NCBI RefSeq assembly: GCF_000026545.1
Contig: NC_011601.1
Length of the DNA: 64,000 nt
DNA from: Escherichia coli O127:H6 str. E2348/69
GTDB taxonomy: Bacteria > Pseudomonadota > Gammaproteobacteria > Enterobacterales > Enterobacteriaceae
Direction: 5' to 3' (one strand)
This document shows positions 13,898 through 19,123 of this stretch, piece by piece. The notes under the pieces are model-generated. The model ran no database searches. It was not told the origin of the DNA and saw nothing but the letters and a program-made list of their open reading frames with translations. A program made the translations under genes and the position numbers. Positions within the stretch are counted from its first letter, which is position 1; every line of letters starts with the position of its first letter.

Positions 13898-14257
13898 TTA
13901 TTGTTCGCCTACAAAGCTGACAAAGCGCGTTCCTTTATAGCTCAGCGTACCTTTATCACCCACTGTCAGGGCGTGGTACTGCTGGGCGTCGAGGCGAAAC
14001 GTCTGCTCCATTCCTCCGCTTTGCGGTTTGAAGCTTGCCTCATAGCGCATACTGGTGCCTGCCGGAGTCACTTCCTGCTGGCGCGAACGGCGATCGTTAA
14101 TCGGTTTTTCCCGCTTGTTGCTCACCACCACCAGCTTTTGCTGTAGCGGTGCCATATCATTATCAGCTTTTTCCCGTCGTTGTTGCATAAAACGAAACGA
14201 TGCGGCGACGATGATTAAGCCAATGATAACAATAAAGAAAAGAGGTGGTTTACTCAT
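13898..14257 (-). CDS. yhhM: DUF2500 family protein YhhM
   Basis: 119 aa MSKPPLFFIVIIGLIIVAASF... with one N-terminal TM segment. Confidence 0.88.
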   Translation of the reverse strand: MSKPPLFFIVIIGLIIVAASFRFMQQRREKADNDMAPLQQKLVVVSNKREKPINDRRSRQQEVTPAGTSMRYEASFKPQSGGMEQTFRLDAQQYHALTVGDKGTLSYKGTRFVSFVGEQ

Positions 14258-14397
14258 CTTTATCCCTCATCGGAAAATGCGGAAATAAGCATACCCTGCC
14301 AGTTATGGTGTTGTCATCCGTCCACCCTCGCCACTAAACTGGAAGCAAGACCGTAGGCATTCCGCTTACGAAAAAATAACGAATTCAAGGAACTAAG

Positions 14398-15024
14398 ATG
14401 CTTTGGTCGTTTATCGCTGTCTGTCTTTCCGCATGGCTATCTGTGGATGCATCGTATCGTGGGCCAACCTGGCAACGCTGGGTGTTTAAACCGTTAACCC
14501 TTCTTCTCCTGCTGTTGCTGGCCTGGCAAGCGCCGATGTTCGACGCCATTAGCTATCTGGTGCTGGCGGGGCTGTGTGCCTCACTGCTGGGCGATGCGCT
14601 AACCCTGTTGCCACGTCAACGTCTGATGTACGCCATCGGCGCGTTTTTCCTCTCGCACCTGCTGTACACCATCTATTTCGCCAGTCAGATGACGCTCTCT
14701 TTCTTCTGGCCTCTGCCGTTGGTGCTGCTGGTTCTGGGCGCGCTGTTACTGGCGATTATCTGGACGCGTCTGGAAGAGTATCGTTGGCCTATCTGCACGT
14801 TTATCGGCATGACGCTGGTGATGGTGTGGCTGGCAGGTGAACTGTGGTTCTTCCGTCCGACCGCTCCGGCGCTCTCTGCGTTTGTCGGCGCTTCGTTGCT
14901 GTTTATCAGTAACTTTGTCTGGCTGGGTAGTCACTATCGCCGACGCTTCCGTGCGGACAACGCGATTGCTGCGGCCTGCTACTTTGCTGGTCACTTCCTC
15001 ATCGTCCGCTCGCTGTATCTCTGA
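14398..15024 (+). CDS. yhhN: YhhN family inner membrane protein
   Basis: 208 aa polytopic membrane protein [22 protein letters not shown]... Confidence 0.9.
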
Positions 15025-15030
15025 TAAAAC

Positions 15031-15062
15031 TTGACTCTGGAGTCGACTCTAGAGTGTATCCT
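15031..15062 (+). promoter_or_regulatory. zntA promoter with ZntR (MerR-type) operator
   Basis: TTGACT -35 followed by dyad ctctggagtcgactctagag and -10-like gtgtatcct; long spacer typical of MerR-family promoters; 36 bp upstream of zntA ATG. Confidence 0.7.
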
Positions 15063-15097
15063 TCGGTTAATGAGAAAAAACTTAACCGGAGGATGCC

Positions 15098-17296
15098 ATG
15101 TCGACTCCTGACAATCACGGCAAGAAAGCCCCTCAATTTGCTGCGTTCAAACCGCTAACTACGGTACAGAACACCAACGACTGTTGCTGCGACGGCGCAT
15201 GTTCCAGCACGCCAACTCTCTCTGAAAACGTCTCCGGCACCCGCTATAGCTGGAAAGTCAGCGGTATGGACTGCGCCGCCTGTGCGCGCAAAGTGGAAAA
15301 TGCCGTGCGCCAGCTTGCAGGCGTGAATCAGGTACAGGTGTTGTTCGCCACCGAAAAACTGGTGGTGGATGCCGACAATGACATACGGGCACAAGTTGAA
15401 TCTGCGGTGCAAAAAGCGGGCTATTCCCTGCGCGATGAACAGGCCTCCGACGAACCACAAGAATCACGCCTGAAAGAGAATCTGCCGCTGATTACGCTTA
15501 TCGTGATGATGGCAATCAGTTGGGGGCTGGAGCAGTTCAATCATCCGTTTGGTCAACTGGCGTTTATCGCGACCACGCTGGTTGGGCTGTACCCAATTGC
15601 TCGTCAGGCATTACGGCTGATCAAATCTGGCAGCTACTTCGCCATTGAAACCTTAATGAGCGTAGCCGCTATTGGTGCGCTGTTTATTGGCGCAACGGCT
15701 GAAGCTGCGATGGTGTTGCTGCTGTTTTTGATTGGCGAACGACTGGAAGGCTGGGCCGCCAGCCGCGCGCGTCAAGGGGTCAGCGCGTTAATGGCGCTGA
15801 AGCCAGAAACCGCCACGCGTCTGCGTAACGGTGAGCGTGAAGAGGTGGCAATAAACAGCCTGCGGCCTGGCGATGTGATTGAAGTTGCGGCAGGTGGGCG
15901 TTTGCCTGCCGACGGTAAACTGCTCTCACCGTTTGCCAGTTTTGATGAAAGCGCCCTGACCGGAGAATCCATTCCTGTGGAGCGCGCGACGGGCGATAAA
16001 GTTCCTGCAGGCGCCACCAGCGTAGACCGTCTGGTAACGCTGGAAGTGCTGTCAGAACCGGGTGCCAGCGCCATTGACCGGATTCTGAAACTGATTGAAG
16101 AAGCCGAAGAGCGCCGCGCACCTATTGAGCGGTTTATCGACCGTTTCAGCCGTATTTACACGCCAGCGATTATGGCCGTCGCCCTGCTGGTAACGCTGGT
16201 GCCGCCGCTGCTGTTTGCCGCCAGCTGGCAGGAGTGGATTTATAAAGGGCTGACGCTGCTGCTGATTGGTTGCCCGTGTGCTTTAGTTATCTCCACGCCC
16301 GCGGCGATTACCTCCGGGCTGGCGGCAGCAGCGCGTCGTGGGGCGTTGATTAAAGGCGGCGCGGCGCTGGAGCAGCTGGGTCGTGTTACCCAGGTGGCGT
16401 TTGATAAAACCGGTACGCTGACCGTCGGTAAACCGCGCGTTACCGCGATTCATCCGGCAACGGGTATTAGTGAATCTGAACTGCTGACACTGGCGGCGGC
16501 GGTCGAGCAAGGCGCGACGCATCCACTGGCACAGGCCATTGTGCGCGAAGCACAGGTTGCTGAACTCGCCATTCCCACCGCCCAATCACAGCGGGCGCTG
16601 GTCGGGGCTGGCATTGAAGCGCAGGTTAACGGTGAGCGCGTGTTGATATGCGCTGCCGGAAAACATCCTGCTGATGCATTTGCTGGTTTGATTAATGAAC
16701 TGGAAAGCGCCGGGCAAACGGTAGTGCTGGTAGTACGTAATGATGACGTGCTGGGTGTCATTGCGTTGCAGGATACCCTGCGCGCCGATGCTGCAACTGC
16801 TATCAGTGAACTGAACGCGCTGGGTGTCAAAGGGGTGATCCTCACCGGCGATAATCCACGCGCAGCAGCGGCAATCGCCGGGGAACTGGGGCTGGAATTT
16901 AAAGCGGGCCTCTTGCCGGAAGATAAAGTCAAAGCGGTGACCGAGCTGAATCAACATGCGCCGCTGGCGATGGTCGGTGATGGTATTAACGACGCGCCAG
17001 CGATGAAAGCTGCCGCCATCGGGATTGCAATGGGTAGCGGCACAGACGTGGCGCTGGAAACCGCCGATGCAGCATTAACCCATAACCACCTGCGCGGTCT
17101 GGTGCAAATGATTGAACTGGCACGCGCCACTCACGCCAATATCCGCCAGAACATCACTATTGCGCTGGGGCTGAAAGGCGTTTTCCTCGTCACGACGCTG
17201 TTAGGGATGACCGGACTGTGGCTGGCAGTGCTGGCAGATACCGGTGCGACGGTGCTGGTGACGGCGAATGCGTTACGGTTATTGCGCAGGAAATAA
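15098..17296 (+). CDS. zntA: Zn(II)/Cd(II)/Pb(II)-translocating P-type ATPase ZntA
   Basis: 732 aa; N-terminal metal-binding GMDCAAC, CPC transmembrane motif (GCPCALV), DKTGTLT phosphorylation site, GDGINDAP hinge. Confidence 0.97.
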   Translation: MSTPDNHGKKAPQFAAFKPLTTVQNTNDCCCDGACSSTPTLSENVSGTRYSWKVSGMDCAACARKVENAVRQLAGVNQVQVLFATEKLVVDADNDIRAQVESAVQKAGYSLRDEQASDEPQESRLKENLPLITLIVMMAISWGLEQFNHPFGQLAFIATTLVGLYPIARQALRLIKSGSYFAIETLMSVAAIGALFIGATAEAAMVLLLFLIGERLEGWAASRARQGVSALMALKPETATRLRNGEREEVAINSLRPGDVIEVAAGGRLPADGKLLSPFASFDESALTGESIPVERATGDKVPAGATSVDRLVTLEVLSEPGASAIDRILKLIEEAEERRAPIERFIDRFSRIYTPAIMAVALLVTLVPPLLFAASWQEWIYKGLTLLLIGCPCALVISTPAAITSGLAAAARRGALIKGGAALEQLGRVTQVAFDKTGTLTVGKPRVTAIHPATGISESELLTLAAAVEQGATHPLAQAIVREAQVAELAIPTAQSQRALVGAGIEAQVNGERVLICAAGKHPADAFAGLINELESAGQTVVLVVRNDDVLGVIALQDTLRADAATAISELNALGVKGVILTGDNPRAAAAIAGELGLEFKAGLLPEDKVKAVTELNQHAPLAMVGDGINDAPAMKAAAIGIAMGSGTDVALETADAALTHNHLRGLVQMIELARATHANIRQNITIALGLKGVFLVTTLLGMTGLWLAVLADTGATVLVTANALRLLRRK

Positions 17297-17324
17297 AGAG
17301 GCTATCAGTCTACGGTCCAACAAT

Positions 17325-17460
17325 GCCGGATGCGGCGTGAACATCTTATCCGGCCTACACAGAGCATCGAACTCGTAGGCATGATAAGACGCGACAGCGT
17401 CGCATCAGGCATTGTGCACCGTATCGCCAGATGCAGCTTGAACGCCTTATCCGGCCTACA
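17325..17460. repeat. BIME cluster (three REP-like palindromic units)
   Basis: gccggatgcggcgtgaacatcttatccggcctaca ... gacgcgacagcgtcgcatcaggc ... cgccttatccggcctaca. Confidence 0.8.
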
Positions 17461-17510
17461 AACCGGTTTCAAGCAGCAACATTGAGCGCGATCGGTCCCC
17501 TCGCTCCTCT

Positions 17511-19060
17511 CTGTCTCTTATACACAAATCCCCACCCGGGGATTTGTGATGTCTGTCAGTCTGCTTTAGGGGGACTCTTTCCATCCGGTAGTTTCCTTCC
17601 TCCCCGGCAGCGATTTTTTGAACTTTTTCCTCACCCGTTGATCTTCTCTTATATTTCATTTTCTTCGGGTCTGTTATGGTACTTTCTGATTGTTATTCAT
17701 GGGCTAACGAGCAGTTTGGACATGCCCGTCTCGGTGATCCGCGTCGTACACGACGCCTTGTGTCACTGGCCTCTTCTCTCGCTCAGCATGCAGGTCTTTC
17801 TATTGTGAAATCATCCCAGTCCACTGCTCAGGTTGAAGGTGCGTACCGCCTGATACGTAACCCGTCTGTGTCCCCGCAAGCCATTGCCGAAGCCGGATTT
17901 ACCGCCACTGTAAGGGCATGTGAGGCTCATCCGCTGCTCCTCGCGCTGGAAGACACCACCACCATTAACTTCAGTCACAGTACGGCATCTGATGACCTGG
18001 GGAATACCACCACTAACCCGAAGACGCGCGGGCTGCTGGCTCACTCTGTCCTGATGTACGCCCCCGACAGCGCCCTGCCAGTCGGTCTTATCGAACAGCA
18101 GCGCTGGAGTCGTGCCACGGACACCTACGGTGTTAAGCACCAGCGAAAAGAACGTCCCTATGAAGAAAAAGAAAGTTACCGCTGGCAGCAGGCTTCGGAG
18201 CGCATGGCCGAACGGCTGGGGGAGATACAGAAACGGGTAATCACTGTCTGTGACCGGGAAGCGGATATCTGGCATTACCTGCATTATAAAGTCAGCCACG
18301 GGCAGCGCTTCGTGGTGCGTGCAGCACAGAATCGCCGGCTGGAAGAAGCACCCGGCAAGCTCTTCGAACTGCCGGAAGTCCTGGCAACCGCGGGAAGCCA
18401 CACGCTGAATGTGATGCAAAAAGGCGGGCGGGCAGCCCGCCAGGCCCGGATGTTCATCAGTTACAGCGAAGTCAGCATAAAAAATCCCGACAACAGCGGC
18501 CAGGCGCTCCCGCTCACGTATGTCTGTTGCCGGGAGCAGGCAGAGGACGGCGCCTGCTGGCATCTGCTGACGTCAGAAAAAGTGGCGAGTGCCGCCGATG
18601 CGCGACGTATCGTCAGCCATTACGAGCGACGCTGGCTGATAGAGGAATACCACAAGGCGTGGAAAAGTGGTGGTACATGTGTGGAATCGCTGCGAATGCA
18701 GACCCGGGATAACCTCGAGCGCATGGTGGTTATCAAGGCGTTTATCGCGGTGCGGGTGCTGGGCCTGCGGCAGGGCGGTATCAGTGAAGAAACACAAAAT
18801 GACAGCTGTGAGAAAATACTGACGCCGACAGAGTGGAAACTGCTGTGGGTTAAGCTGGAAGGAAAACCGCTTCCGTCACAGATGCCGACACTGAAATGGG
18901 CCTGTCTGAAACTGGCGAAACTGGGGCGATGGCATGACAGCAAACGCACCGGTCGCCCCGGTTGGGTAGTCATGTGGGATGGCTGGTTCAGACTTCAGGA
19001 TATGGTTGAGGGTTACCTGGTGATGAAGTCTCTTGATCAGGAGATCTGATCAAGAGACAG
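17511..19060 (+). mobile_element. IS50-like (IS4 family) insertion sequence, apparently intact, flanked by 9-bp target-site duplication CGCTCCTCT
   Basis: Left end ctgtctcttatacacaaat (17511..17529) and right end agatctgatcaagagacag (19042..19060) are inverted repeats of each other over the terminal CTGTCTCTT and closely resemble Tn5/IS50 outside and inside ends; identical 9-mer cgctcctct at 17502..17510 and 19061..19069. Confidence 0.88.
17676..19049 (+). CDS. IS4-family (Tn5/IS50-like) DDE transposase
   Basis: 457 aa; collinear similarity to Tn5 Tnp (LGDPRRT.RLV, EGAYR.IRNP, LALEDTT, CDREADI, RFVVR, LLTSE, RRWLIEEYHKAWKSG, DNLERMV, KRTG); stop lies inside the right inverted repeat. Confidence 0.9.
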   Translation: MVLSDCYSWANEQFGHARLGDPRRTRRLVSLASSLAQHAGLSIVKSSQSTAQVEGAYRLIRNPSVSPQAIAEAGFTATVRACEAHPLLLALEDTTTINFSHSTASDDLGNTTTNPKTRGLLAHSVLMYAPDSALPVGLIEQQRWSRATDTYGVKHQRKERPYEEKESYRWQQASERMAERLGEIQKRVITVCDREADIWHYLHYKVSHGQRFVVRAAQNRRLEEAPGKLFELPEVLATAGSHTLNVMQKGGRAARQARMFISYSEVSIKNPDNSGQALPLTYVCCREQAEDGACWHLLTSEKVASAADARRIVSHYERRWLIEEYHKAWKSGGTCVESLRMQTRDNLERMVVIKAFIAVRVLGLRQGGISEETQNDSCEKILTPTEWKLLWVKLEGKPLPSQMPTLKWACLKLAKLGRWHDSKRTGRPGWVVMWDGWFRLQDMVEGYLVMKSLDQEI

Positions 19061-19123
19061 CGCTCCTCTGGGGAGAGGGTTAGGGTGAGGGGAAAAGGCG
19101 GCATCGAAGCCCATCTTCCCCCA

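Follow-up and report, generated by a model that had tools for sequence, protein, structure and literature searches.

A rare C-to-T allele interrupts the palindrome of the ZntR operator at the zntA promoter of Escherichia coli E2348/69

Positions 15031 to 15062 of the window, the whole 64,000-nucleotide stretch of E. coli O127:H6 E2348/69 DNA that was analyzed, are, as read from the sequence, the known MerR-type ZntR operator-promoter of zntA, and the T at position 15050 breaks the perfect palindrome of the corresponding K-12 operator. The T allele is rare in E. coli and had a single origin. The operator is likely to remain functional, and any shift in ZntR affinity, repression by apo-ZntR, or induction is expected to be modest at most. 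The ZntR/PzntA system is already known, and the T allele appears to be undescribed in the literature searched. The features of the locus are as follows.

14398-15024: yhhN, upstream neighbor of PzntA (RefSeq annotation)
15031-15036, plus strand: -35 hexamer of PzntA, TTGACT (from the sequence; the same in K-12)
15037-15056, plus strand: 20-bp spacer, ctggagtcgactctagagtg, overlong as in MerR-type promoters (counted from the sequence)
15034-15055, strand neutral: ZntR operator, a dyad of 11 + 11 bp with 21 of 22 bases matching the consensus ACTCTGGAGTCGACTCCAGAGT
15034-15044, plus strand: left, -35-proximal half-site, ACTCTGGAGTC, identical to the consensus
15045-15055, plus strand: right, -10-proximal half-site, GACTCtAGAGT (GACTCTAGAGT), bearing the variant
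15050, plus strand: C-to-T polymorphism at the sixth base pair from the dyad center in the -10-proximal arm (C in K-12)
15057-15062, plus strand: -10 hexamer, TATCCT (from the sequence; the same in K-12)
15088-15092, plus strand: putative Shine-Dalgarno sequence of zntA, GGAGG, read from the sequence 5 nt before the ATG at 15098
15098-17296, plus strand: zntA, the regulated gene, intact, encoding a 732-residue P-type ATPase that exports zinc, cadmium, and lead (open reading frame list; RefSeq annotation)

The dyad in the window consists of ACTCTGGAGTC followed by GACTCTAGAGT, and the ZntR consensus operator has been published as ACTCTGGAGTCGACTCCAGAGT (PMC1526738). The match of 21 of 22 bases, the position of zntA downstream, and the RefSeq annotation of yhhN and zntA on either side bear out the first-pass annotation, which had named this element as the ZntR operator at the zntA promoter. 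Its range of 15031 to 15062 spans exactly the -35 hexamer, the 20-bp spacer, and the -10 hexamer, and the dyad string it gave, ctctggagtcgactctagag, was found at 15035 to 15054. It had also placed the dyad in the interval from the -35 to the -10 element, which holds insofar as the dyad lies inside the promoter but not strictly, since the dyad shares its first three bases with the -35 hexamer. A repeat search of the window recovered the dyad as a 92% complementary palindrome, and when up to three mismatches to the ZntR consensus were allowed, the dyad was the sole match in the 64 kb, with zero matches expected by chance. In 22-bp sites of MerR/HMRTR regulators, a distance of 8 bp separates the dyad center from the 3' end of the -35 element (PMC5045206); in PzntA, the center likewise lies between 15044 and 15045, 8 bp past the end of the -35 hexamer at 15036. 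The published promoter call for PzntA is TTGACt-(20)-TATccT (PMC1526738 supplement). A standard sigma-70 scan allowing spacers of 16 to 18 bp returned no promoter at 15031 to 15062, as expected for an overlong MerR-type spacer where ZntR-induced distortion of the DNA is needed.

ZntR/PzntA is a textbook MerR-type metal sensor, common in zinc, cadmium, and lead biosensors, and the mechanism of ZntR at PzntA was reportedly established in 1999 by Outten and by Brocklehurst. ZntR occupies the dyad as a dimer, and its Zn(II)-bound form deforms the spacer such that the -35 and -10 elements are aligned for RNA polymerase (PMC9909328). Applied to the window, a ZntR dimer would sit on the dyad, whose 22 bp take up the overlong 20-bp spacer, and, when zinc is absent, would keep the promoter in a poor conformation; on binding Zn(II), ZntR would underwind and kink the center of the dyad, bringing the hexamers into alignment for sigma-70 RNA polymerase. 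The single-origin change from C to T would leave the -10-proximal half-site somewhat weaker, and with the left half-site, the center, the spacing, and both hexamers intact, the promoter would most likely still be bound by ZntR and inducible by zinc.

Across the whole yhhN-zntA intergenic region, a single difference separates the window from K-12 MG1655, namely, the T at 15050 in place of C; an alignment of 121 bp contained two differences, this one and another in the coding end of yhhN. The K-12 dyad, ACTCTGGAGTC followed by GACTCCAGAGT, is a perfect 22-bp palindrome, whereas the two-fold symmetry of the dyad in the window is interrupted by one mismatch, at 15050. The first-pass annotation had taken the K-12 operator to be a perfect palindrome, in agreement with both the MG1655 alignment and the published consensus (PMC1526738), and its reading of one mismatch in the right arm (ctagag versus ccagag) was upheld by the same alignment. 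The comparison with the K-12 promoter that it had proposed was run, and K-12 differs from the window at this position. Its assessment of the T as minor, one that could slightly alter ZntR-dependent activation, agrees with the evidence, the portion concerning activation being a prediction.

The T allele is rare. The sample comprised 5,426 complete E. coli genomes, of which 5,425 contained the locus, and the 61-mer bearing T was found exactly in seven of the latter, corresponding to approximately four independent strains: three assemblies of E2348/69 (EPEC O127:H6), A25 (monkey, Mexico), DCE7 (pig, China), and 2022H047 and 2022H048 (human, Japan), such that the carrier strains derive from the United Kingdom, Mexico, China, and Japan. 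The K-12 61-mer was present exactly in 5,396 of the 5,425 genomes and the K-12 33-bp core promoter, from the -35 to the -10 element, in 5,414. Changes in the central core promoter were confined to approximately 11 genomes, seven of which have T at 15050 and roughly four of which have other variants, while the coding DNA beside the promoter differs from the window by 1 to 5% in most genomes. A core that is nearly invariant next to coding DNA that varies indicates much stronger constraint on the promoter than on its surroundings, and the near-invariance of the base at 15050 could mean that T is more harmful than we have assumed.

Carriers of the T allele share more than this one base. The window is 100% identical to E2348/69 over 12,270 bp, and in a multiple alignment of 3.1 kb the T-allele genomes were identical over 14151 to 16606 (2,456 bp), with the nearest C-allele genomes, of phylogroup B2, differing at several nearby sites. 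A search with the 2,456-bp haplotype returned the same seven genomes at 100% identity and a next best match of 99.6%; the 2.46-kb haplotype is set apart from its closest relatives by roughly 10 differences, 15050 among them. Sharing of one exact 2,456-bp haplotype indicates a single origin of the T allele on a haplotype that is itself rare. The presence of this haplotype in all carriers and in no C-allele genome rules out repeated mutation at a hotspot, and an assembly or sequencing error is ruled out by the occurrence of T in seven assemblies from approximately four unrelated strains. Beyond the shared block, the carriers have diverged, with 49 to 78 differences over 12 kb (0.4 to 0.7%). The allele has had time to reach different continents and hosts, and this spread argues against a strongly harmful effect of T.

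The K-12 context at 15050, as read from its bases, is not a Dcm CCWGG site, which also counts against a hotspot. The T creates a CTAG tetranucleotide and an XbaI site, TCTAGA, at 15048 to 15053. No tetranucleotide is known to be rarer in E. coli than CTAG, and repair by the very-short-patch pathway tends to restore CCAG; a mutation that creates CTAG therefore runs against the bias of this repair pathway.

The gap between yhhN and zntA measures 73 bp and contains PzntA, the zntA start lies 36 bp downstream of the -10 hexamer, and ZntA is identical to its K-12 counterpart at 721 of 732 residues (98%). The leader contains an inverted repeat, TCGGTTAA...TTAACCGG, at 15063 to 15092, which is identical in K-12 and stops just short of, or overlaps the start of, the Shine-Dalgarno sequence GGAGG. 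The hairpin predicted from this 5'-UTR repeat around the Shine-Dalgarno sequence, GGTTAA...TTAACC, was considered and rejected, as its stability was no better than that of shuffled sequence (z = -1.0). Just 3' of zntA is a REP/BIME-like block of approximately 160 to 170 bp (17300-17480), in which GCCGGATGCGGCGTGAAC..CTTATCCGGCCTACA occurs twice, along with a partner in inverted orientation; both the window and A25 have the block, and K-12 lacks it. Further downstream, between zntA and tusA and 215 bp past the zntA stop, an IS4-family element annotated as ISEc13 (1,550 bp, 17511-19060; transposase open reading frame, 17676-19049) has ends reading CTGTCTCTT.../...AAGAGACAG and is bordered by a 9-bp target duplication, CGCTCCTCT, at 17502 to 17510 and 19061 to 19069. 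K-12, A25, DCE7, and 2022H047 are without ISEc13 at this site, and the insertion could affect termination of zntA or expression of tusA.

The C-to-T change converts the CTCCA core of the right arm to CTCTA, and the predicted ZntR sites of Salmonella, Yersinia, Photorhabdus, and Shewanella retain TGGAG...CTCCA, with variation in the outer and central bases (PMC1526738 supplement). Korostelev et al. (2016; PMC5045206) assembled 776 MerR-family protein-site pairs in an alignment of 20 columns, numbered from 0, from which the two central bases of 22-mers had been removed. We mapped the operator to these columns, checking the mapping with the MerR, CueR, and ZntR sequences against the table in that study, which gave, for ZntR, A0 C1 T2 C3 T4 G5 G6 A7 G8 T9 and A10 C11 T12 C13 C14 A15 G16 A17 G18 T19. 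The T at 15050 falls in column 14, which mirrors column 5 and adjoins column 13. The strongest covariation in the family joins columns 6 and 13 with residue 14 of the recognition helix (D16 of ZntR), where the gammaproteobacterial group has G-D and C-D pairs, and columns 5 and 14 are also significantly correlated with this residue (PMC5045206). D16 and K23 were invariant in all 120 ZntR cluster representatives. No structure of a ZntR-DNA complex was found among solved structures, which include ZntR as the fragment of residues 43 to 141 (1Q08); from the covariation, we infer that the base pair at 15050 is probably read by the N terminus of the ZntR recognition helix, within a two-base core. Since the C-to-T change falls at a base pair probably read by ZntR, one half-site should be somewhat weaker, and the effect would be modest at most.

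The same change is found at zntA in other species. A scan for TTGACYYTNNAGTNGNCTNNARRGT, with one genome per species, returned at least 120 loci, a sample that takes in only sites agreeing with the remainder of the pattern, and in 49 of the 120 matches listed a zntA orthologue lies directly downstream. Among the matches listed, 46 of these 49 zntA-linked loci have the consensus core GG/CC (left arm/right arm); one, in Vibrio sinaloensis (L098), has GG/CT, the same change as in the window, and two, in Photorhabdus tasmaniensis (L105) and a Photobacterium sp. (L097), have AG/CC, its mirror image. The inner columns, 6 and 13, were invariant in 49 of 49 zntA-linked loci among the matches listed, and the combination of fixed columns 6 and 13 with variation at columns 5 and 14 in three of the 49 points to greater tolerance at the outer core position. 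An operator with one CTCTA arm thus serves zntA elsewhere, and perfect symmetry is typical rather than required. The 120 matches listed (L015-L134) also include numerous further MerR-family operator-promoters whose spacer measures 20 bp, and in these the two core bases of one arm shift jointly with those of the other (AA/TT in Burkholderia and Halomonas, CG/CG in Rhodococcus, and GT/AC and CC/GG elsewhere). Core pairs were palindromic in 91 of the 120 matches listed, which clearly depicts coevolution between operator and regulator. The zntA operator of Escherichia albertii, CTGGAGTCGGCTCCAGAGT (L032:6218-6242), has a single asymmetry of another kind, with G rather than A at the second base pair of the right arm, near the dyad center.

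These replacements, fixed in three of 49 other species among the matches listed, would also be seen if C and T here were equivalent to ZntR and the allele were strictly neutral, hitchhiking on a rare haplotype of the zntA region. Such neutrality is consistent with 15050 being only one of the roughly 10 differences that mark the 2.46-kb haplotype and with the coexistence of T with wild-type ZntR. It is nevertheless possible rather than probable, as neighboring synonymous sites vary freely while 5,414 of 5,425 genomes retain the exact 33-bp core and as columns 5 and 14 covary with the recognition-helix residue across the family. The likely reading is a functional operator with a slightly weaker right half-site and a quantitative effect that is modest at most.

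Alternatively, T may substantially weaken binding to the -10-proximal arm, such that zntA is poorly induced, or less repressed without zinc, and tolerance to zinc, cadmium, and lead is altered. The operator position is conserved, and in PaCadR, a homologue of ZntR, point mutations in the 11-bp arms all led to a significant loss of binding (PMC12301328); in those mutants, however, both arms were mutated together, whereas in the window the change is confined to one arm. Furthermore, the downstream-bound subunit of CueR touches the sigma-70 non-conserved region as an auxiliary contact (PMC8169799), and by analogy the ZntR subunit on the -10-proximal arm, which bears the polymorphism, may also lie against this region. 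Weighing against substantial impairment are the persistence of T in diverged strains from the United Kingdom, Mexico, China, and Japan and the fixation of the same change at zntA in other species. In addition, in 0.5 mM zinc acetate the doubling time of E2348/69 rose from 93 to 104 min, compared with 41 to 77 min for K-12 MC4100 (PMC3438133), so E2348/69 was slowed less than K-12; this growth argues against crippled zinc efflux, albeit indirectly, as other exporters and strain background contribute. We therefore consider marked impairment very unlikely.

The regulator itself also differs from that of K-12. In E2348/69, zntR lies outside the window, approximately 147 kb away, and is intact (L010:2772-3197), encoding a protein of 141 residues that is identical to K-12 ZntR at 139 of 141 positions, the differences being E28G and S60T. 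Threonine at residue 60 was found in 101 of 120 ZntR cluster representatives and is thus the common state in other genera. Residue 28, in the DNA-binding domain just past the recognition helix, was D or E in 116 of the 120 and G in none, and of 5,426 E. coli genomes only 10 contained the exact 61-mer bearing E28G. Taken together, a weakened half-site and ZntR E28G could in principle shift the zinc concentration at which zntA is switched on in E2348/69, although we regard such a joint shift as highly improbable; if true, it would bear on the response of this strain to therapeutic zinc. The operator T and E28G coincide only in E2348/69: the ZntR proteins of A25, DCE7, and 2022H047 are identical to that of K-12, and seven other E28G genomes are without the operator T allele. 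As the two do not co-occur beyond E2348/69, there is no covariation, and compensation by ZntR is possible but unsupported. The further proposal that the two changes form a coadapted pair, resetting the set point of zinc efflux in this EPEC lineage, could draw on the rarity of E28G, on the S60T that accompanies it, and on the absence of G at residue 28 among the cluster representatives, but it is scarcely credible given the three other T strains with K-12-identical ZntR, the seven E28G genomes lacking T, and the absence of residue 28 from the positions correlated with DNA in the family (PMC5045206).

As a natural, palindrome-breaking allele at a probable contact base, the T offers a ready test of the share that a single half-site base has in repression and activation. 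E2348/69 is a reference EPEC strain for studies of zinc and virulence, and when this strain or its PzntA is used as a zinc reporter, both the operator and ZntR differ from those of K-12. Otherwise, the T allele is a rare polymorphism of an ordinary, minor kind, carried by an element that is already known.

In comparison with known systems, PzntA of E2348/69 resembles that of K-12 in its locus, -35 and -10 hexamers, 20-bp spacer, dyad center, 21 of 22 dyad bases, and downstream gene; it differs in the C-to-T change at the sixth base pair of the -10-proximal arm, which makes the palindrome imperfect, and in being served in trans by a ZntR with E28G and S60T. The operators of V. sinaloensis, P. 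tasmaniensis, and the Photobacterium sp. share with the window a ZntR-type dyad, a promoter with a 20-bp spacer, a zntA orthologue directly downstream, and a transition that is confined to one arm and falls at the equivalent symmetric position (CTCTA in the right arm or, as its mirror, TAGAG in the left). Unlike the window, they belong to other genera, differ in the outer and central dyad bases, and have the change apparently fixed in the species representative rather than as a rare allele. More distantly, ZntR and CadR are homologous (E = 1e-24), and the P. aeruginosa CadR consensus is AACCCTGTAGTTACTACAGGGTT (PMC12301328). CadR/PbrR operators have the same promoter design as ZntR sites and the same G/C pair at columns 5 and 14 but differ in having a 21-bp site, a 19-bp spacer, and T/A at columns 6 and 13, matched to Glu rather than Asp in the recognition helix (PMC5045206).
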